Shown piece after piece: positions 1,764 to 34,668 of a stretch of DNA of 57,334 nt. A model generated the notes under the pieces. The model saw only the letters and a program-made list of their open reading frames with translations, made no database searches and was not told the DNA's origin. The DNA lies in IMG/VR virus record IMGVR_UViG_3300011335_000748, positions 1 through 57,334 of that record; one strand, written 5' to 3'. The translations under genes and the position numbers were made by a program. Every line of letters starts with the position of its first letter. Position 1 is the first letter of the stretch. This stretch comes from a virus. Taxonomy: Duplodnaviria; Caudoviricetes.

Positions 1764-4700
1764 ATGGTTGACGAAACGCCAGCCCCTTTAACTCCGCTCC
1801 AGCAATACAAGTCGACCTTCACGGGGCTAGCCGATACCCCCGACGATCAGGTTATCGACTCTTTGTATGGCGAGTACGGCAAGGCTTCCGGTATGGACAA
1901 GCGAGACTTTGCTCTCGCTTGGCAGGGCCGTGGACCAAGGATGTCCCCCCTTCAGTCAGGTATTGCTGGGCTCAAAACCAGCTACCTTACTACCAAAGCC
2001 GGAGTAGCGCAGTCTCTTGGGGCAGATGAGTCTGCCCGCAACTACCTCAAAGAAGCAGAGACCATTGAGGCTGATACAAAGGCTCGATATCAGCCTGAGT
2101 TCCGGTCGTTCGATGACGTGCGCGGCCCAATCGATCTTGCAAAATACACCGCTGAAAAGTTTGGTGAGTCTGCCCCTCAAATGGCGGCACAAGCTGCGGG
2201 TGCATTGGCCTTGACGGCTGCGTCAGCAATAGCTCCGGTAGCAGCTCCCGTTGGTATTGGTGCTCGTGTCCTTTACACAGGACTAAGGGCACTTGCCGGT
2301 ACGACAACCCGAGCTGCTGTCACCGGAAGCACCGCAGTTGGTCTGCCTCTTTACACGGGGGCCAATCTTCAGCGTCAGATGGACGAAGGTGCAAAGTTTG
2401 AGGACGTAAGCTTAGGTCGCGCAACAGCTGCGGCAGCTCTTCAGTCAACACTGGATTCGATATCTCTTGCCACTGTGTTTAAGGGCCTTCCCGGAAGCAT
2501 GCTTCAAAAAGGTGGCATCTTCCGGCAAGCGGTCATTCGTGGTGTCGAATCAGGGGCAACCGAATCCCTTACGGAAACGGCACAGCAAGCCCTTGAAATC
2601 ATGCAAGCCAATCCTCAGAAGCTGTTTGAGTTTGGAGCAGACGTTCAGAAGGAACTGAAGGAAGCGGCTATTGCTGGCGCGATCCTCGGCGGCGCAATGG
2701 GTGGTGTGGCTGGCGGGGTTCAAAAAGGATTTGAACGCAAGCCGAAGCCCGTTGATGATACCACAACCCAGCAGGGTGGCGATAATACGGGCGGCGGCGG
2801 TGACACGACTACCGACACAAGCGGTGGTGCACTTCCTCCCCCTACTCCGGGATATGCTCCTCGGACCTTTGGTTCTGAGGGTCTGACAGAACCCTCCATC
2901 CAGCGGGCAGATCCTCGGACAGGCAAACCTGTGGTTGAGGTTGGCCTTACTCAACCCGTGGAACAGGTTGTTCCGGGTAATATTACAACGGAGGCCCAAG
3001 ACCTTATCCGCTTGGTGGACCAAGGGAACATGCAGCTCACCCCTGCAATAACCCCGGAACTTCAGAGGATTCTTCAGGAGAATGGGATTGCTGTCGAGGC
3101 AAGTGACACCTCCGATACGGCCCTCGAAAAATTGCGGGCTAAGGCTACCGTAGCTCCTATTATTAAGGACAAGGTCGGAGTTCATTTCACCAATGACTTT
3201 GATCGTGCGCTCTTCTATGCCAACTCCCCAAACATTGATGAGGCAACTCGGCAAGAGTACGAGGACTTCCTGACCCATCAGGGCCTCGACAAAACCCAGA
3301 TTCTTGAACTTGGGTTGCGGCTTGAGGACAAGATCCAAGAGGAAGCTAAGACTCACTTTCAGTTAGGCAACGAAGGTCCTCTGACCTTGGACTTCTCCCG
3401 CAGGGAAGCCGCTGAGATCTACAACAACCTTCCACAGGTCGCCGACACGTGGAAGAAGTTGCAGGAGCAGGGTTACTCTGCCGAGCAGATCAATGAGGAG
3501 ATGTCCGGTGAGGCGGCATACACTAACGCCACTCGCGGGAATGTGTCTGATGCAGTGCAAAAAGACACCGGGATCTTCTATTACGACAGGTCTCCCCCTA
3601 GAACTAATGACCCAAATGCGGTTGCGGCAGTTCCGGACAAAACTTTCAAGCGCAAGTTGGAAAGCAAATTTCCCGGTCTCACCTCCATCATGGAGAACAT
3701 TGCTCAACGTCTGTTCCCCGGGACAGATATCCATTTCTTCAATGAAAAGGATCCAAATAACTTTGGTTCCTTTGCCGGTATCTGGCGTTACAAGGTGGAC
3801 CCAAGTGCCCGCCGTCCCGGAGCCATGGGCATTGCTATCAACCTTCACGATATCTTGAAGGGGGCATACTCCAAAGGGAAGCAGCCTTCCCCACGTCAGA
3901 TAGCCAATCTTGTCCATACTATCCTGCATGAACTTAGCCATCCTGCTGTTGATTCGGTCCTTACCCGACTGAATGCCGCTGATATGGAAGCGGTCATGCA
4001 ACAGTATGCTTCGGAACGTAACAGCATAGCTATTAAAAGAGAGGCCGCTGCTCGAACTATCAACCAGCATACTTTTGATCTTAAACAAAAGGGTCCTGTA
4101 ACCGAGCAAGAGCTGGCTGACCTCAAGGACAGGGTTGCCAAAAGATTTGGGGTGTCTGTTTCTTCCATAGAAAAGTTTATCGCTGACCCTAGTGTCAACG
4201 AGCTGGGTGCTTTCTGGCATAAGGACAGCCAAGAGCTAACCTACCGCAGGGACTTTCAGGAGTGGGCTGCTGAAAAAGGCATGCGCTGGATGCTCCAAGA
4301 AATCCCGGGCCGTATGCCTGAGACCGTCTTGGACAAATTTGCAGCCGCCGTTCTTAAAGCTTTGCGTCAGGTTTATGAAACCATCGAAGCTGCATTTGGT
4401 ATCCCGTACACCCCCGGCGCGTTTGAAAAAGCGATGGCGGATACGTGGGGAGCTCATGATCGTACCAACGTCAACAAACAGTTGGCGGAGAAGATGATCT
4501 TGGATCCGCGTAATAACGCTACGGGTGGACCGTGGGCTAACGGCCCCTTTGGTCCAAGGCCCTACTATTCCTCCGCTGAACTTCAGGTTGGGCCAGACGA
4601 ATATTCTCGTTCAACATCTCAATTCGGTGCACTTGCGGGTGAGGATCAAGCCAAGTACAGCTCCCCAATCGAGGACCTTCCCAAAGAACCGAGGGAGAAA

Positions 4701-7385
4701 AGGGAACAGGTTAAGGCTGACAAGACCCAAACTGCCCCTGAGAACACACAGCTTCAGCCCACTGGGAACGTAGAAACCATTGTCCGTAAACTTCGCCCTG
4801 AGGTGGAGCAAAAGGAAACGGGGATCAAGGCTTTCTTCAAGGGCATTCGTGACCTGTTGAAAGGCAACAGCTGGCGCGGAATGGCGGACTTCATTACAGA
4901 GAAGTTAGCCGACAACATGATCAAGGTCCTGCGCCTTGATGAGCGGTACGCTGCCGAGATGAAGAAGCAGGGTCGCCCCTTGGAAGCAGGGTACGACCAA
5001 CGCTATCCCGCAACCGCTCGCCTCTCGGCGTATGCGGCAGCACTTGCACGTGACAACTCCCTTGCTATGGTCGAAACAATCCTGCACCACGGTGGCAGCA
5101 TTGAGTACGTCAAGACGGGGAACGAGGCTACCGATGGGTACATCCGTGTAAACCGCAACGGTAACAAGGGCCTCACCTTCCTTGGTGATCTGATCCGTGC
5201 TGGGAAACTGGAACGCTGGCGCGACTATGCCATGGCAAAGCGCATCGCGGGCCTGACCGAGCGCGGGCTGAAAACCCCTATCACTGTTGCTGAGGCGAAC
5301 GTCATCCTTCGTGAGTACGGTCAGGATGCTGACATCGTCAAAGCTTACGAGAGTTTTCAGAAGCACAACAACAGCATGATCAAGCTGGCAGTGGACACCG
5401 GAGTGATCACCAAAGAAGCTGGTGCGATGTTTGTGAAGAACAACGACTACTACCCATTCTATCGTGAGATGGAAGAGGGCAAAGGTTTCTCGGGCCCAAT
5501 CTTCACGGCTGGTCTGATCTCCCCCACCAAGATTGCCAAGGCAATGGGCGGCACGGAGCACCTGAAGAATGACCCCGTCGAAGTGATCTTGAAGAACACC
5601 CACTTCTGGGCAAATGCTGCCGCAAAGAACGTCGCATCCAACAAGATGTATACGATGATGAAGTTCTTGGGCGAGGCTTCGGATCTTCCTGCTAAGGGCG
5701 GGGTGGTCAAGCCGGGCGAGATCGAAGGCACGACACGCATCAAGGGCAAAGAGCAGAGGTTCGTTATCAAAACTCCTGATCTTGCGGCGGCAATGGAGTC
5801 TATGGGCGCAAGCCCGATGCCAAACTGGACCAAGATCCCCGGAGCTTTCACGAGTTTCTATCGTGAACTTGTGACCCGTGATCCTACGTACATCTTTAAG
5901 AACCTAATGCGCGATCCGTTCTCGGCAATGGTTACCAGTGGCGTGAACTTCAATCCGTTTAAGGCCTTCTCAAACTTTGCGCGGGCTTTAAAGAACCCTG
6001 ACTCTATGGAGTCTTTGCTTGCTTTGCAGAACTTCGGCATCTTGGGCGGGTACAAGTCCCTCCCAAACATGGAGAACGCATCAAAACTTCTTGGTAAGGG
6101 GTTCGATCCAGCCTCCATCCAGCAAGGCAGCGTCTTTGTTGTGCCGGATGCTAATACCTTAACTGGTATAATCTCCAAGTCTTGGAACGCCCTTGGTCGT
6201 ATGTCCGAGGCTTCTGATGCTGCAACCCGTACGGCTATCTACGAAGAGGTCTTGGCAAAGACAGGCAATGAGGCCGAGGCTGCTTTCCGTGCACAGGAAG
6301 TGATGAACTTCCGCAAGCACGGCACAAACCAAGCCATCCGCATTCTGAGCATGATGGTCCCCTTCGTTAACGGTCGCATCCAAGGTATCAGTGTGGCGGC
6401 TCAGGCTTTCGCTGATGGCAACCGCATGCACACCTTGGTCAAAGGCGGGATGTTGTTCGGCGCGGCGATGGCTCTTCAGGGTCTGACCGCAGATGACAAG
6501 GACTATTTGCAGCTACCAGACTATGTTCGTCAGGGGTCCTTGGTAGTTCCGCTGAAAGTCTTGGGCATTTCTGACAAGGGATTCCTTGCCATACCAAAGC
6601 CATTTGAAATGGGCTTCATCTTCCAGACCATTCCGGAGCTGATGATCCAAGCCTATGGCACGGACAGCAAGGAAGACCGTGCGGTCAAGACCGTCATTGC
6701 AAACTACTTGGGGCAGACCTTTGGGATCAGTCCTTTCCCCTCTATCATTGCACCAATCGCTGAAGTGTACTTCAACCGCTCCAGCATGACGGGCTTGCCT
6801 ATCATCACCCAATCAATGGAGCATCTGCCTCCGGAGTTGCAGTACACTGCGGCAACATCCGACATAATAAAGAACCTCGGACAGGCGACGGGTATCTCCC
6901 CTGCAAAGTTGGAGACCATCGTTAAAGGGTACGGCGGTCAGGTCATCACCACCATGTTGACCATGCTTGATGGTATGTACCGTGCGTCAACTGGTAAGGG
7001 CGTGGAAAAGGATTTCACCCAGTATCAACCTGTCTCCACGTTCATCAAAACCGAGAAGAACACCAATCCGCAGGGAGTTGCTGACATCTATCGGCTGTCC
7101 GCTGAAATCCAAGGGCTGACCACTGGCCTTAATAACTACATCAGCTACGGCATGATCAAGGAAGCGGATAACTTGGTGAAAGAAAATCAGGGCTTGTTCG
7201 CTCTGAAACAAACTATCGGAAACTTACGTAACCAGTTGAACACCCTCAGCCGTCAGGAGCGTATCGTCATGAACAACGATGCGATCCCGCAGGAAGACCG
7301 CACACGGATGGTTGATAGTTTACGCGAGGCCCGCCGCCAGATATCCTCGGCCATGCCGGACCTCATCAAACAAACAGGAAAGTAA
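1764..7385 (+). CDS. Large polyvalent/ejection protein (about 1873 aa) with zincin-like HExxH motif and C-terminal LPD38-like domain
   Basis: GGAG RBS before ATG 1764; ILHELSH motif with downstream FQEWAAE; C-terminal IPKPFEMG..FQTIPE..PIAEVYFN..TGLPI pattern recalled from LPD38. Confidence 0.75.
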   Translation: MVDETPAPLTPLQQYKSTFTGLADTPDDQVIDSLYGEYGKASGMDKRDFALAWQGRGPRMSPLQSGIAGLKTSYLTTKAGVAQSLGADESARNYLKEAETIEADTKARYQPEFRSFDDVRGPIDLAKYTAEKFGESAPQMAAQAAGALALTAASAIAPVAAPVGIGARVLYTGLRALAGTTTRAAVTGSTAVGLPLYTGANLQRQMDEGAKFEDVSLGRATAAAALQSTLDSISLATVFKGLPGSMLQKGGIFRQAVIRGVESGATESLTETAQQALEIMQANPQKLFEFGADVQKELKEAAIAGAILGGAMGGVAGGVQKGFERKPKPVDDTTTQQGGDNTGGGGDTTTDTSGGALPPPTPGYAPRTFGSEGLTEPSIQRADPRTGKPVVEVGLTQPVEQVVPGNITTEAQDLIRLVDQGNMQLTPAITPELQRILQENGIAVEASDTSDTALEKLRAKATVAPIIKDKVGVHFTNDFDRALFYANSPNIDEATRQEYEDFLTHQGLDKTQILELGLRLEDKIQEEAKTHFQLGNEGPLTLDFSRREAAEIYNNLPQVADTWKKLQEQGYSAEQINEEMSGEAAYTNATRGNVSDAVQKDTGIFYYDRSPPRTNDPNAVAAVPDKTFKRKLESKFPGLTSIMENIAQRLFPGTDIHFFNEKDPNNFGSFAGIWRYKVDPSARRPGAMGIAINLHDILKGAYSKGKQPSPRQIANLVHTILHELSHPAVDSVLTRLNAADMEAVMQQYASERNSIAIKREAAARTINQHTFDLKQKGPVTEQELADLKDRVAKRFGVSVSSIEKFIADPSVNELGAFWHKDSQELTYRRDFQEWAAEKGMRWMLQEIPGRMPETVLDKFAAAVLKALRQVYETIEAAFGIPYTPGAFEKAMADTWGAHDRTNVNKQLAEKMILDPRNNATGGPWANGPFGPRPYYSSAELQVGPDEYSRSTSQFGALAGEDQAKYSSPIEDLPKEPREKREQVKADKTQTAPENTQLQPTGNVETIVRKLRPEVEQKETGIKAFFKGIRDLLKGNSWRGMADFITEKLADNMIKVLRLDERYAAEMKKQGRPLEAGYDQRYPATARLSAYAAALARDNSLAMVETILHHGGSIEYVKTGNEATDGYIRVNRNGNKGLTFLGDLIRAGKLERWRDYAMAKRIAGLTERGLKTPITVAEANVILREYGQDADIVKAYESFQKHNNSMIKLAVDTGVITKEAGAMFVKNNDYYPFYREMEEGKGFSGPIFTAGLISPTKIAKAMGGTEHLKNDPVEVILKNTHFWANAAAKNVASNKMYTMMKFLGEASDLPAKGGVVKPGEIEGTTRIKGKEQRFVIKTPDLAAAMESMGASPMPNWTKIPGAFTSFYRELVTRDPTYIFKNLMRDPFSAMVTSGVNFNPFKAFSNFARALKNPDSMESLLALQNFGILGGYKSLPNMENASKLLGKGFDPASIQQGSVFVVPDANTLTGIISKSWNALGRMSEASDAATRTAIYEEVLAKTGNEAEAAFRAQEVMNFRKHGTNQAIRILSMMVPFVNGRIQGISVAAQAFADGNRMHTLVKGGMLFGAAMALQGLTADDKDYLQLPDYVRQGSLVVPLKVLGISDKGFLAIPKPFEMGFIFQTIPELMIQAYGTDSKEDRAVKTVIANYLGQTFGISPFPSIIAPIAEVYFNRSSMTGLPIITQSMEHLPPELQYTAATSDIIKNLGQATGISPAKLETIVKGYGGQVITTMLTMLDGMYRASTGKGVEKDFTQYQPVSTFIKTEKNTNPQGVADIYRLSAEIQGLTTGLNNYISYGMIKEADNLVKENQGLFALKQTIGNLRNQLNTLSRQERIVMNNDAIPQEDRTRMVDSLREARRQISSAMPDLIKQTGK

Positions 7386-9516: not shown

Positions 9517-9540
9517 AGGGAGGCATAACGGGAGAAAGCC

Positions 9541-30229: not shown

Positions 30230-30313
30230 GGACCGAGGTCAGAGGTTTTTTGCTGTTTCCCCTCTGTTCAGGTGGCCCACAGGAGAACAGCGTCAGGGCC
30301 ACCCCTCGGGACC
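30230..30313 (+). ncRNA. Candidate structured ncRNA: three-way junction with kissing loops
   Basis: TGG-TATAAT at 30215-30223; stems CCGAGG/CCTCGG, CAGAGG/CCTCTG, GGTGGCCC/GGGCCACC; loop complementarity GCTGTT/AACAGC; hairpin downstream. Confidence 0.55.
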
Positions 30314-30318
30314 ACAAC

Positions 30319-30345
30319 AAAAAGGGGAGCCTAAGCCCCCCTTTG
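30319..30345. terminator. Probable bidirectional terminator
   Basis: AAAAAGGGGAGC-CTAA-GCCCCCCTTT between convergent units. Confidence 0.6.
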
Positions 30346-30367
30346 TAGAGTCGATAGGTTGTGTGGA

Positions 30368-30577
30368 TTAGAAGAGTTCTTCTTCTTCAGCTTCTTCAAC
30401 AACGATATAGTCGTCGTCCATCAGATCGTAGAGCTGGTCGATGAGCATGTAGAGTGCACCAATGCGCTCTGGCAAAGAGCATGCCATAAACTCATCTGAA
30501 AGGTTGAACTGAACGAGATCAACATCATCGTCTGATGTGCTACGTTCGATAACAGCAGTACCGATTACAACAGTCAT
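30368..30577 (-). CDS. Small highly acidic protein
   Basis: AGGAG RBS; 19 D/E versus 2 R in 69 aa. Confidence 0.6.
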   Translation of the reverse strand: MTVVIGTAVIERSTSDDDVDLVQFNLSDEFMACSLPERIGALYMLIDQLYDLMDDDYIVVEEAEEEELF

Positions 30578-30663
30578 GGCAAACTCCTATGGGTGTGGTG
30601 GAACGCTTGCAAACTACAGATCAAAGATGACACTAAAAAGACGTGGTTTTTTCTATGCTGCAC

Positions 30664-30692
30664 TTGCGAAGGGCAACTATTTAATGTATATT
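30664..30692 (+). promoter_or_regulatory. Sigma70-type promoter for the suhB-like sRNA
   Basis: TTGCGA-N17-TATATT. Confidence 0.6.
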
Positions 30693-30698
30693 GCATTT

Positions 30699-30781
30699 AC
30701 ACCGTGTCATTCTCCGTGGTGTTTCCTCCCTAGACTTGGGACGGTAGCTGTGGACAAAACCCGGTTACCGTCTCCCTTTTC
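30699..30781 (+). ncRNA. suhB/MmgR (alpha-r8)-like small RNA
   Basis: GGTGTTTCCTCCCTAGACTTG core, matching the family core as recalled, followed by a 13-bp terminator stem (30738-30750/30762-30774) and a T tract. Confidence 0.75.
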
Positions 30782-30799
30782 TCTTCGGAGCTTTATCCT

Positions 30800-32272
30800 T
30801 TGCCCTCTGACCTTGCACACAGCCTCCCGGAAGATGCGGCTCGCCAATATGCTCGTCTTTTGGAAAGAGCCACACGCCTTGCTACCTTAGAGAAGGCGAG
30901 AGGTGGCTTCCTTGATTTCGTAAAGTTTGTGTGGCCCGGTTTCATTGCCGGGCGGCATCACCGCATTGTAGCCGAGAAGCTTGAGGCCATGGCGCGTGGC
31001 GAGCTCAAGCGTTTGATTATCAACATGCCGCCGAGACATACAAAGTCGGAGTTTGCCAGCTACCTGTTTCCGGCTTGGTTCATTGGGCAGATGCCCCACA
31101 AAAAGATTATGCAAGCGACCCATACCGCTGATCTGTCGATCCGGTTCGGGCGTAAAGTGAGAAACCTGATGGATGGGGATATGTACAAACCCATCTTTCC
31201 TGATGTGAAACTTCGGTCAGATTCCAAGGCAGCGTACCGCTGGGAGACCGATCAAGGAGGAGAATATTATGCAGCGGGTGTTGGAGGTAATATTGCGGGG
31301 CGTGGAGCTGATCTCTTCATTGTTGACGATCCGCACTCAGAGCAAGACGCTCTCTCCCCCACAGCAATGGAAGGCGCATGGGACTGGTATCAGTCAGGAC
31401 CACGGCAGCGTCTTCAGCCCGGAGGGGCGATCCTTGTTGTTATGACCCGGTGGGGTGAGTCGGATCTCACGGCCCGCCTTTTAAGACAGCAAGCGACAGA
31501 TCCCAAGGCTGATCAATGGGAGATCGTGGAGTTTCCTGCAATCTTGGAAAGCGGTGAGCCGCTATGGCCTGAGTACTGGAAGCTTGAGGAACTAGAGGGG
31601 ATCAAGGCTTCGATCACCCTGTCCAAGTGGCAAGCGCAGTATATGCAGCAGCCGACGGCGGACTCAGTCTCGATCATCAAGCGCAGCTGGTGGAACGTGT
31701 GGGATCATGAGAAGGTCCCCCGTTTGCAGTATGTGATGCAGTCGTACGACACGGCGCACACCAAGAAGAAAACAGCCGACTACAGCGCGATCCAGACGTG
31801 GGGGGTGTTCTACCCCAAAGAGGATGGTCCGGCGAATGTCATCCTGCTGGACTGCAAGAAGGGCAGATGGGAGTTCCCCGAGCTCAAACGCATCGCCCTT
31901 GATGAGTACAAGTACTGGGAACCGGAGACGGTCCTGATCGAAGCGAAGGCTGCGGGTCTCCCTTTGCTACAGGAACTCCGAAGCGTGGGCATCCCGGCGG
32001 TGGACTTTACGCCGAGTCGCGGGAATGATAAGCATGTACGTCTGAACTCCGTTGCTTCGCTGTTCGAAGCGGGGCTGGTTTGGAGGCCGGACGCATCGTG
32101 GGCGGAGGAAGTGGTCGAGGAGATAGCAGCCTTCCCCAACGGTGAGCACGACGACTTGGTTGACTGCGCTTCACAGGCCCTCATGCGATTCCGGCAGGGT
32201 GGCTTTGTTACACATCCGGATGACTACCAAATGGACGAAGGTCCAAGGTCAACGTACAGGGTTTATTACTGA
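30800..32272 (+). CDS. terL: Terminase large subunit
   Basis: INMPPRHTKS Walker A, GRGADLFIVDDP Walker B, MTRW, SYDTA, HDDLVD nuclease motifs. Confidence 0.95.
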   Translation: MPSDLAHSLPEDAARQYARLLERATRLATLEKARGGFLDFVKFVWPGFIAGRHHRIVAEKLEAMARGELKRLIINMPPRHTKSEFASYLFPAWFIGQMPHKKIMQATHTADLSIRFGRKVRNLMDGDMYKPIFPDVKLRSDSKAAYRWETDQGGEYYAAGVGGNIAGRGADLFIVDDPHSEQDALSPTAMEGAWDWYQSGPRQRLQPGGAILVVMTRWGESDLTARLLRQQATDPKADQWEIVEFPAILESGEPLWPEYWKLEELEGIKASITLSKWQAQYMQQPTADSVSIIKRSWWNVWDHEKVPRLQYVMQSYDTAHTKKKTADYSAIQTWGVFYPKEDGPANVILLDCKKGRWEFPELKRIALDEYKYWEPETVLIEAKAAGLPLLQELRSVGIPAVDFTPSRGNDKHVRLNSVASLFEAGLVWRPDASWAEEVVEEIAAFPNGEHDDLVDCASQALMRFRQGGFVTHPDDYQMDEGPRSTYRVYY

Positions 32273-34668
32273 TGGCAAAATCTCCATTCAATAACGTAGA
32301 AGACTCCTTGTACAGCGGTCCTTCGTCCTCTGACCTTGGTGGGGCAGAGGTTGAGCTGCCGGAAGACGGTATTGATGAGAGCGATGATTTCACAATTGAG
32401 GAAGATGAAGATGGTGGAGCTACAATCACTTTTGGCGACACAGATCCAGAAAAAATGGACATATCTTCGCTCGGCTTTGGCGACAACTTGGCACTGGTTC
32501 TGGATGACAGTGTGCTTGCAACCGTCAGTCAGGATCTCTCGTCTGCTATTGAAGAAGACGATTCAGGCCGCGAAGAGTGGAAAAAGACTTATGAAGAGGG
32601 TCTTACTCTCCTTGGTCTTACGTATACAGAACGTACTGAACCGTTTAACGGATCGACTGGCGTAACCCACCCCCTGCTGAACGAGGCCGTCACCCAGTTT
32701 CAGGCGCAGTCGTACAAGGAGCTGCTCCCTGCGAGCGGTCCTGCCCGTGCGCGGATCGTCGGTAAGGTGACACCTGAGCGGGAACAGCAAGCCGACCGCG
32801 TCAAAAACTACATGAACTACCAGATTACGGAAGTCATGGAGGAGTATGACCCCGAGTTCGACCAGATGCTGTTCTATGTTGGCTACGGCGGCTCGGCTTT
32901 CAAGAAGGTTTACTACGACGGCGACTTCGGACGGGCTGTGAGCCCCTACATTTTGCCAAAAGATCTTATCGTTCCGTACGGTTCGCGTGATTTGGCGACC
33001 GCAGAGCGGGTAACACATGTGTTACGGGTCTCGGAGAACGAGCTTCGCAAGCAACAGGTCACCGGATTCTACCGTGATGTGGACTTGACGGGCCCAACCG
33101 AGCCTGATCGTAGCGACATTGAAGAAAAAATTGACCGGATTTCCGGGATTGAGCCCGCTGGCGACCCCAAAGACTACGTTTTGTGGGAGTGCCACTGCTA
33201 TTTGGACATCGAAGGCTTTGAAGATCTGGACGATGAGGGCGAACCCACCGGGATTAAGCTGCCTTACATCGTAACAATTGACTCTGACTCCGGCGATGTG
33301 CTGGCAATCCGCCGCAACTACAAAAAAGATGACGTTCGGAAAAAGAAAAAGCAGTATTTCGTCCACTACAAGTTCCTTCCGGGCCTTGGCTTCTACGGTT
33401 TTGGCCTGATCCACCTGTTGGGCAACCTTGCTCGCAGCGGAACTTCCATTCTCCGCCAGCTGATCGACGCTGGTACGCTGGCAAACCTCCCTGCCGGGTT
33501 CAAAGCGCGTGGCTTGCGGATCCAAGATCAGGAATCACCCCTGCAACCGGGCGAATGGCGCGATGTTGACGCCCCGGGTGGGGACTTGGCGCAGAATCTG
33601 CTGCCTCTTCCCTACAAAGAACCCTCTGCAACCCTGTTCCAGCTGCTCGGCTTTGTTGTTTCGTCGGCAGAGAAGTTCCTCGGGACCGCCGATCTCGGTA
33701 TGTCGGACGGCAACCAAGAGCTGCCAGTCGGAACCACCATTGCCCTGCTGGAACGCGGCTCTCGCGTCATGAGTGCAGTGCACAAACGGCTCCATTATGC
33801 CCAAAAACAGGAATTGCGTTTACTGGCTCAGGTATTTGCTGAGTATATGCCGGACCAGTACCCCTATGAGGTAGAGGGCGCGACCCCTGACATCAAGCGT
33901 CAGGACTTTGACGACAAGATCGACATCTTGCCAGTCAGCGACCCCAACATCTTCAGCATGACCCAGCGTATTGCGCTGGCCCAGCAGCAGTTGCAGTTGG
34001 CAAAGGAAGCCCCGCAGCTGCATAACCAGTATGAGGCCTATCATCGCATGTATGCCGCACTCGATGTGCGGAACATTGACATGATCCTGCCTCCTCCACC
34101 GAAGCCACAGCCACAAGGTCCGGCAATCGAAAATGCTCGTTCTATGCTTGTTCCCAATGGTGCTCCTCCTCTTCAGGCTTTCCCGGATCAGGACCATGTA
34201 GCCCACATTGAAGCGCATATGGCTTTCATTAAGTCGCAATTGATCCAGACTTCCCCGCAAGTTTACGGGATTCTGCTGGCGCACGTGTTTGAACACGTGG
34301 CATTGGCGGCTCAGGGTATGATCATGGAGCAGATGCAGCAGCTTCAGGGGGCTCCAATGCCTCCGCCTGAAATGCTGCTGAAGCAACAGGCGCAGATTGA
34401 AGCGCAGATGGTTGACAAGGTTATGGCTGATCTTAACCCACCAAAGGGTACTGATCCGCTAATCGAGCTTCAGGCCAAGGACTTGGAAATCCGCGACAGA
34501 GCTGTTAAACAGAAGGCGGAAGAAGCTGCACTTCGTATCGACCTTGATGAGCGTCGTTTGGCTGCTAAAGAACGGGCAGATGAAGAGCGTCGTAACTCGA
34601 ACGAGGACATCTCGCAGCTTCGTGCCAACGTATCTCTTGCGAGAGCCCATGTAGCTAAAAGGCCCTGA
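32272..34668 (+). CDS. Portal protein
   Basis: Follows terL; HPLL.EAVTQFQA, GSAFKKVYYD, GFYGFGLIHL, DAGTLANLP. Confidence 0.88.
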   Translation: MAKSPFNNVEDSLYSGPSSSDLGGAEVELPEDGIDESDDFTIEEDEDGGATITFGDTDPEKMDISSLGFGDNLALVLDDSVLATVSQDLSSAIEEDDSGREEWKKTYEEGLTLLGLTYTERTEPFNGSTGVTHPLLNEAVTQFQAQSYKELLPASGPARARIVGKVTPEREQQADRVKNYMNYQITEVMEEYDPEFDQMLFYVGYGGSAFKKVYYDGDFGRAVSPYILPKDLIVPYGSRDLATAERVTHVLRVSENELRKQQVTGFYRDVDLTGPTEPDRSDIEEKIDRISGIEPAGDPKDYVLWECHCYLDIEGFEDLDDEGEPTGIKLPYIVTIDSDSGDVLAIRRNYKKDDVRKKKKQYFVHYKFLPGLGFYGFGLIHLLGNLARSGTSILRQLIDAGTLANLPAGFKARGLRIQDQESPLQPGEWRDVDAPGGDLAQNLLPLPYKEPSATLFQLLGFVVSSAEKFLGTADLGMSDGNQELPVGTTIALLERGSRVMSAVHKRLHYAQKQELRLLAQVFAEYMPDQYPYEVEGATPDIKRQDFDDKIDILPVSDPNIFSMTQRIALAQQQLQLAKEAPQLHNQYEAYHRMYAALDVRNIDMILPPPPKPQPQGPAIENARSMLVPNGAPPLQAFPDQDHVAHIEAHMAFIKSQLIQTSPQVYGILLAHVFEHVALAAQGMIMEQMQQLQGAPMPPPEMLLKQQAQIEAQMVDKVMADLNPPKGTDPLIELQAKDLEIRDRAVKQKAEEAALRIDLDERRLAAKERADEERRNSNEDISQLRANVSLARAHVAKRP

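Follow-up and report, generated by a model that had tools for sequence, protein, structure and literature searches.

The window, by which we mean the whole 57,334-bp stretch of DNA analyzed here, is a complete virus record with direct terminal repeats, and its DNA occurs in river and lake metagenomes. Its genes are oriented leftward between about 30.6 and 16.8 kb and rightward from terL up to about 56.7 kb. The terL gene (30800 to 32272, plus strand; 490 amino acids, TTG start) is the first gene of the rightward structural block and is identified by matches to Pfam Terminase_6C (4.9e-11) and to phrog_38 (3e-111). The N terminus of TerL is conserved from residue 1 among relatives, and the closest cultured phages, Pelagibacter phages HTVC027P and HTVC023P, have a TerL identity of 57 to 62%. 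Downstream of terL follows the gene of an SU10-type portal protein (32272 to 34668, plus strand; Pfam SU10_portal at 2e-10), while the likely Shine-Dalgarno sequence of terL, GGAG (30787 to 30790, plus strand), stands 9 nt before the TTG start and is invariant in five relatives. On the other side lies a divergent ORF for a 69-amino-acid acidic protein (30368 to 30577, minus strand), for which no Pfam or PHROG family matched and which is followed by its own terminator-like hairpin (30344 to 30321). The intergenic gap between this ORF and terL measures 222 nt and contains only one plus-strand promoter-like site, at 30664 to 30692. Since the upstream neighbor is encoded on the minus strand and has its own terminator, upstream transcription does not simply enter terL, which leaves this promoter as the only plausible source of terL transcripts and means that every terL transcript must pass the terminator of the small RNA located in the gap.

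The initial annotation of this stretch had placed a host-type small RNA here, composed of a promoter, a core with an exposed anti-Shine-Dalgarno sequence, and an intrinsic terminator, and all three parts can indeed be read in the sequence between 30664 and 30781 on the plus strand. The RNA was also correctly described as lying directly upstream of terL, with 19 nt between its 3' end and the terL start. A promoter scan gave a σ70-like promoter (30664 to 30692, plus strand) consisting of TTGCGA (30664 to 30669), a 17-nt spacer, and TATATT (30687 to 30692), with a predicted transcription start near A30699. The match to the consensus is 9 out of 12, which is no better than chance matches in the window genome, and promoter-like sites are not enriched (4 versus 1.4 expected; 11 versus 12.5 expected over 20 kb). 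A minus-strand promoter-like site (30710 to 30683) overlaps the σ70-like promoter. The word GCACTTG, considered as a repeated phage promoter word, was discarded, with 11 matches versus 9.7 expected.

The RNA starts with stem-loop SL1 (30699 to 30722, plus strand), a hairpin of 8 bp, including two G-U pairs, with an 8-nt loop, which ends in a second CUCC and is longer than the 4-bp stem of the Rfam suhB consensus. It is followed by the single-stranded core GTTTCCTCCCTAGACTT (30721 to 30737, plus strand), a 17-mer identical to the Rfam suhB consensus; the core reported earlier, GGTGTTTCCTCCCTAGACTTG, was confirmed letter for letter in the window. The 10-mer UUUCCUCCCU of the alpha-r8 family, the anti-Shine-Dalgarno seed, is present exactly at 30722 to 30731, which is the only occurrence of TTTCCTCCCT in the window. 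The 10-mer alone is within chance, given that at least one copy appeared in 11 of 100 shuffles, whereas the given 17-mer would be expected about 7e-6 times in 57 kb on both strands, according to an arithmetic estimate. The unit closes with a terminator (30738 to 30786, plus strand), formed by a 15-pair hairpin (30738 to 30774; −22.5 kcal/mol) and the sequence CC-TTTT-CTCTTC. A simple, consensus-type terminator scan did not list this hairpin, the U tract of which reads TTTT and then CTCTTC and falls short of the 8 U seen in the family consensus; with only four consecutive U, a discrete 83-nt product is not assured. Folded in silico, the 83-nt RNA has a minimum free energy (MFE) of −29.7 kcal/mol (z = −3.2), with one of 200 shuffles folding as well, and its core is predicted to be open, with a mean unpaired probability of 0.89 over the core and of 0.94 to 0.99 per base over the 10-mer. 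Each part is weak when considered on its own, but the identity of the 17-mer with the consensus, this fold, and the covariance match described next set the combination apart from chance.

We then compared the element with the family to which it had been assigned, that is, suhB/alpha-r8. The Rfam suhB/MmgR model (RF00519) aligns to positions 30699 to 30789 over its whole length (1 to 77) with 29.6 bits, corresponding in cmscan to an E value of 6e-4 for 901 nt and of 9.1e-6 for the whole genome. The model search suggested in the initial annotation is therefore significant, yet the score lies 11 bits below the gathering score of 41 bits. The same holds for the closest relative, L022 (27.9 bits), and for the elements of L123 and L128, neither of which reaches the gathering score. 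According to PMC12559287, the alpha-r8 family is characterized by a weak hairpin, the single-stranded 10-mer UUUCCUCCCU, and a Rho-independent terminator. The window element fits these traits with SL1, an exact and unpaired 10-mer, and a strong, conserved terminator hairpin, although its U tract is short. The proposed membership thus stands as far as the host-type core and the significant covariance match are concerned, but not at the level of the gathering threshold, and from its sequence we read the element as a divergent phage-borne relative of alpha-r8 rather than as a curated RF00519 member. The same paper reports that the typical single-copy alpha-r8 gene keeps chromosomal synteny with the gene of an N-formylglutamate amidohydrolase (FGase); such synteny is not found in the window, where the locus is viral. 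It further reports that SisA, together with Hfq, represses mRNAs by pairing of the 10-mer with their 5' untranslated regions, as demonstrated by compensatory mutations, and that its targets comprise TonB-dependent receptors, transporters, and metabolic genes. MmgR and SuhB limit the accumulation of polyhydroxybutyrate (PHB), according to PMC7143759 and bioRxiv 10.64898/2025.12.09.693200. What the initial annotation had stated about the 10-mer and about MmgR and PHB agrees with PMC12559287 and PMC7143759. Our literature search found no paper on phage-encoded MmgR, SuhB, or alpha-r8 RNAs, although supplements could still mention one.

To see how far the element extends among related phages, a survey that the initial annotation had recommended, we used a TerL-based scan of IMG/VR, which confirmed 452 relatives, of which the best 80 were examined. 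One of these (L153) has no upstream sequence and was not readable, leaving 79 readable loci. Among these best 80 of 452, the element occupies the same place in all seven relatives whose TerL is 89 to 96% identical (L122 to L128) and is absent from the 72 other readable loci, with TerL identities of up to 79%. An eighth related contig, the short L061, carries the element but no terL, which brings the related viral contigs that have it to eight. Where more distant relatives share the divergent layout, the gap before the same TTG start is shorter and does not contain the RNA, which gives the RNA the appearance of an insertion into a preexisting terL leader. As a separate observation, many distant TerL relatives (L152 to L198) share a AAGTTTTACACAAACA...TATGATATAAC motif about 40 nt before the terL start, which looks like a promoter of that TerL phage group and places terL at the head of a transcription unit throughout the group.

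Within the clade, the relatives form two further types, one comprising L122, L123, and L127 (the L123 type) and the other represented by L128. Changes concentrate in the loops and the promoter spacer, with stems, hexamers, and core being kept. The promoter hexamers and the 17-nt spacing persist while the spacer itself is largely replaced (TTGCGA-17-TACATT in the L123 type and TTGTTT-17-TATATT in L128), and the core of the L123 type is one U shorter. The 1-nt insertions and deletions among relatives exclude a protein-coding reading frame. In an alignment of five relatives, 94.6% of the pair cells hold standard pairs (91.9% in SL1 and 96% in the terminator), compared with 36 to 51% when the partners are slid. 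One pair in the terminator is compensatory, changing from G-C to A-U. The covariation score was reached by 58 of 500 shuffles; this evidence is thin because the five aligned relatives are very close.

A second structured RNA lies nearby. CyVA-1 RNA (RF02965) matches at 30233 to 30309 on the plus strand, 390 nt upstream of the small RNA start, with 53.2 bits (gathering score, 41.4). All close relatives retain it (47.4 to 52.6 bits), and a subthreshold copy (39.3 bits) is found about 5 kb from terL in G059, a relative with 74% TerL identity. CyVA-1 was not found in 151 sampled alphaproteobacterial genomes, with 29 candidates scored per genome, and it accompanies alpha-r8 in one of 50 other alpha-r8-bearing viral records. 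A role of CyVA-1 as partner or sponge of the small RNA was rejected, with a duplex energy of −24.6 being reached by 4% of shuffles and cofolding gaining nothing compared with separate folding of the two RNAs. Two unrelated viral contigs, L329 (about 5780 to 5860) and L347 (about 3850 to 3945; minus strand of the locus), contain both conserved CyVA-1 loop sequences in the order opposite to that of the window and may represent a circularly permuted form of CyVA-1. Between the two RNAs of the window stands a minus-strand cassette (30321 to 30577) made up of a promoter-like site, the very acidic 69-amino-acid ORF, the D/E tail of which varies in length, and a strong terminator. The ORF is present in L122, L123, and L127 and absent from L128. 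The cassette separates CyVA-1 from the small RNA promoter in the window and in the former three contigs; L128 and L061 lack it and have CyVA-1 immediately next to the −35 element of that promoter.

Next, we asked where else the family occurs. Scans for the exact 17-mer showed it in at least 119 contigs of IMG/VR and in at least 120 contigs from bacteria, and among the matches listed, all bacterial record titles that name a taxon below the phylum are alphaproteobacterial. When RF00519 was run on 100 of the viral records, 99 matched at an E value of 1e-3 or lower and 76 passed the gathering score, including five of the eight records with direct terminal repeats, that is, complete genomes. Viral and bacterial copies differ in their surroundings. 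One neighboring ORF cluster is common to 47 of 130 bacterial but 0 of 119 viral instances among the matches listed, which argues that the viral copies are not host DNA at prophage edges. Conversely, an HNH endonuclease gene lies directly downstream in 23 of the 119 viral versus none of the 130 bacterial instances listed (Fisher P = 1e-8), the median distance from the core to its start being about 49 nt. Among the 90 ORFs that come next downstream, HNH PHROG families, with up to 17 members each, and the terminase small subunit family phrog_4581, with 11, predominate. Pfam TerL was found within 3 kb in about 19 of 65 downstream versus 1 of 55 upstream regions (P = 3e-5), where 19 is the sum of per-family tallies rather than a per-locus check and the context tallies use crude ORF picks. 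Upstream of the viral copies, primase and helicase genes are found, together with some portals and capsids, indicating that the RNA follows head genes in a minority of contigs. The viral copies thus stand at the head of the packaging module. A comparison of U tracts between viral and bacterial copies gave a P value of 0.26 but was uninformative, the hairpin-end heuristic having misplaced the terminator of the window itself.

Several individual loci deserve mention. In the cultured Bradyrhizobium phage ppBeUSDA76-1 (OP596613.1), the RNA occupies an unannotated gap 7 nt before the HNH gene, which is followed by a hypothetical protein and a DUF3307 protein (two small ORFs), TerL, and the portal. 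In L078 (4843 to 4921), L035, and L068/L107, the alpha-r8 unit begins a few bases after the stop codon of a codirectional gene; in these contigs, with portal and capsid genes upstream, the unit looks like the terminator of the head-gene transcript. In Microcystis phage Mwe-JY08 (PP395640.1, 42325 to 42361; L323), a 37-nt match of 97% to SL1 plus core lies at the end of a rightward gene block and overlaps a hypothetical protein on the other strand, which is odd for a cyanophage.

Regarding the origin of the window's copy, capture from a host, as initially proposed, is plausible. A window-specific 25-mer had 0 matches in genome_contigs, and a blastn-short comparison with all 249 listed instances found matches beyond the core only within the element's own clade (L022 and L061). 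Outside the clade, similarity to other copies stops 3 to 12 nt beyond the core. A blastn search of positions 30660 to 30800 against 50,697 phage records gave no match.

The viral copies that precede an HNH gene share a fixed layout (L012, L020, L025, L040, L053, L064, L106, L114, L120, L121, and others): a NusG-like gene, its terminator, a CATAGG(G/T)TGTGCGGT box, an extra 5' hairpin that covaries, the alpha-r8 unit, and the HNH gene, which starts within about 10 to 25 nt of the unit. In alignment, the CATAGG box has its counterpart in the −10 region, CATATTGT, of chromosomal copies of the Bradyrhizobium type. In the 17 HNH-type loci with an upstream frame, the gene just upstream is NusG-like in 15 according to Pfam NusG and is assigned to phrog_6386 ("transcription antiterminator") in 16, and such a neighbor fits a terminator gate. 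The window had 0 matches to PF02357 (NusG) at an E value of up to 1, and without a NusG-like protein the antiterminator logic of the HNH-type loci cannot simply be carried over to it. Like the copies of the HNH-TerS-TerL phages (L012, L114, L121, and ppBeUSDA76-1), the window's copy belongs to the same family and immediately precedes the first packaging gene, with which it shares the strand. In contrast to the window's copy, however, the HNH-type copies pass the Rfam cutoff (43 to 65 bits), precede HNH instead of terL, and feature the extra covarying 5' hairpin, the CATAGG box, and (in 15 of 17) the upstream NusG-like gene, all three of which the window lacks.

Building on the observed homology, fold, and position of the element, on its conservation in the clade, and on the repeated occurrence of its family at the head of packaging genes in other phages, we infer transcription of the element, its partial termination, an action in trans, and the identity of its targets as follows. 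On balance, we find it probable that the locus is a dual-purpose late leader, which yields both a terminated, host-mimicking riboregulator of about 83 nt and a read-through transcript feeding terL and the structural genes. The host RNA polymerase would start at the σ70-like promoter, near 30699, and some transcripts would stop at the hairpin and its short U tract, near 30781, thereby releasing the RNA of about 83 nt. This RNA would expose the UUUCCUCCCU seed, which is the same as that of host alpha-r8 RNAs, and would pair, probably with the help of Hfq, with ribosome-binding regions of host mRNAs, so that part of the host alpha-r8 regulon, which covers nutrient uptake and carbon storage in those species that have been studied, might come under phage control. 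The identity of the seed speaks for a mode of action like that of the host alpha-r8 RNAs. The remaining transcripts would read through and serve as mRNA for terL, the portal, and other structural genes; in the window, read-through might need another factor or could occur passively, as the short U tract would permit. That the terminator influences read-through into terL, as had been supposed, follows from its position between terL and the only promoter-like site of the 222-nt gap, and we propose that it also sets the amount of late mRNA. None of the runs on record as RNA contains the stretch; the contigs of four runs guessed to be RNA, three of them marked as probably DNA, do not cover 30366 to 30941 and are uninformative on expression.

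Could the element instead be nothing but a leader, acting purely in cis as an attenuator of read-through and/or of terL translation, with a terminated fragment that has no function in trans? Its location inside the terL leader, its U tract, which is short compared with the family consensus, and the NusG-like antiterminator gene that adjoins the element in HNH-type phages would all suit such a leader. Moreover, in the read-through RNA the CUCC of the core is predicted to pair with the GGAG of terL, with probabilities of 0.55 to 0.98 in all five relatives. However, scrambling of the core leaves this GGAG paired (0.92); the predicted pairing thus lacks specificity for the core and carries little weight, and the MFE structure of the 142-nt read-through RNA is itself weakly supported (ensemble frequency of 0.004; z = −1.6). 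Nor would a device acting in cis require 17 single-stranded nucleotides that are identical to the seed region of a host family which acts in trans and is found across Alphaproteobacteria, and the HNH start regions of other phages contain no obvious complement of the core, as judged by eye from an alignment and without quantification. We therefore regard an exclusively cis-acting element as unlikely. Still less likely in our view is a trans action directed chiefly at mRNAs of the phage itself, for instance, in early-gene shutoff or in the tuning of terL. The seed has partial complementarity to every ribosome-binding site of the GGAG type, a plus-strand AGGGAGG at 9517 precedes a possible start (9541) by 18 nt, and the Shine-Dalgarno region of terL, UCUUCGGAG, pairs at 7 of 9 positions with CUCCCUAGA. 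Nevertheless, the complement of a 14-mer, allowing up to three mismatches, has 4 matches versus 4.65 expected, and AGGGAGG occurs 3 times versus 8.3 expected, one of the three being the opposite strand of the element itself. The best duplex energy over 82 crude start regions (−26.4) equals the shuffled-seed mean and is matched by 47% of shuffles, and terL is not among the 15 best duplexes. The suggestion that the RNA silences the phage's own genes with GGGAGG/GGAGG ribosome-binding sites was thus not borne out, there being neither an excess of complementary sites nor a duplex energy beyond that of shuffled seeds.

Two further explanations deny the element a regulatory function altogether or derive it from integration. 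It might be a neutral passenger, namely, recently transferred host or phage DNA that came to lie before terL without any selected function. The narrow distribution (7 of 79 readable loci among the best 80 of 452 TerL relatives) and a score below the Rfam cutoff, as a decaying copy might show, are in line with this idea, but the element is kept in every relative with a TerL identity of 89 to 96% among the same best 80 of 452, and the changes that it has accumulated fall mostly into loops and spacer, sparing stems, hexamers, and core. In addition, a functionless terminator before 26 kb of essential genes should be selected against, and unrelated phages carry members of the family at comparable positions, all of which makes a passenger improbable. 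Small RNA and tRNA genes are common integration targets, and some of the core-bearing IMG/VR records are classed as proviruses; the element could accordingly be the remnant of an attachment site, carried as part of attP after integration into a host alpha-r8 gene. This we find hardly credible, since direct terminal repeats mark the window as a complete genome, the element comprises a whole unit, promoter included, rather than a 3' fragment, no integrase was detected among the 15 ORFs scanned, and similarity to bacterial copies ends a few bases outside the core.

The dual-purpose late leader favored here can be compared with known systems. The late leader of phage lambda consists of the promoter PR' and the terminator tR', gives rise to the short 6S transcript, and is read through with the aid of the Q antiterminator. 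The window resembles it in that a promoter is followed by a terminator within about 100 to 200 nt, before the late genes, with a short RNA as the default product. It differs in that lambda has Q whereas no NusG-like protein was found in the window (NusG alone was searched), and in that the short RNA of lambda is a by-product without known function whereas that of the window is a homologue of a host riboregulator. With the alpha-r8 RNAs themselves, such as MmgR of Sinorhizobium meliloti, SuhB of Sphingopyxis granuli, and SisA to SisD of Caulobacter crescentus, the element shares the order of hairpin, UUUCCUCCCU, and terminator, as well as the organization as a small unit with its own promoter, with promoter and terminator both being predicted ones here. 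Unlike these, the window's copy is encoded by a virus and not by a chromosome and scores 29.6 bits against the cutoff of 41; its SL1 has 8 bp and an 8-nt loop instead of 4 bp and a UCCUU-type loop, its terminator has a longer loop and a shorter U tract, and it has no FGase gene as a neighbor but a gene 19 nt downstream, so that it is also a leader. The enterobacterial phage-encoded sponges AsxR and AgvB, cited in PMC12559287, are likewise phage-borne small RNAs that intervene in a host small RNA network, as proposed for the window; while they antagonize host small RNAs, the RNA of the window copies a host seed and would act like the host small RNA.

It is tempting to speculate, although we consider it rather doubtful in this breadth, that alpha-r8 small RNAs are a widespread late-leader module of alphaproteobacterial phages, which gates the packaging and structural operon. 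A NusG-like protein would open this gate in temperate HK97-like phages, and leakage or another factor would do so here, while the released host mimic would switch off uptake, including TonB-dependent receptors as possible phage receptors, and carbon storage during virion assembly. To this picture the window adds a diverged two-hairpin variant below the Rfam cutoff, a lytic-type freshwater podophage as alpha-r8 carrier, and a placement directly before terL without a NusG-like antiterminator gene. Nearly all Alphaproteobacteria have alpha-r8 RNAs as a core regulator of their nutrient uptake and carbon storage. Should working copies wired to late genes be carried routinely by phages, then both infection and the carriage of prophages would reprogram a conserved regulon of the host through RNA mimicry, and the same 80-nt module would double as a transcriptional gate of virion production. 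As for annotation, the Rfam cutoff misses diverged viral members, and alpha-r8 genes are left unannotated in public phage records.

Finally, the 5' arm of the terminator reads GGGACGGTAGCTG at 30742 to 30747, which contains CGGTAG and is invariant in the five relatives. The six bases CGGTAG also form the center of the ops element recognized by RfaH (PMC5995543, which gives ops12). Since the phage has no NusG-like gene, this likeness in the terminator of the small RNA is probably a coincidence. An ops-like reading of the heptamer GCGGTAG in the 5' hairpin of the HNH-type copies was also discarded: the heptamer is present in 26 of 126 chromosomal copies as well, outside a NusG-like neighbor context, which suggests that the hairpin belongs to a three-hairpin host RNA and that the likeness is again probably coincidental. 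Within the window, GCGGTAG occurs 14 times versus 4.4 expected, a count reached in 0 of 100 shuffles, and most of the 14 sites (e.g., 24443, 39124, and 40215) are located inside structural genes; nine of the 14 lie on the minus strand.
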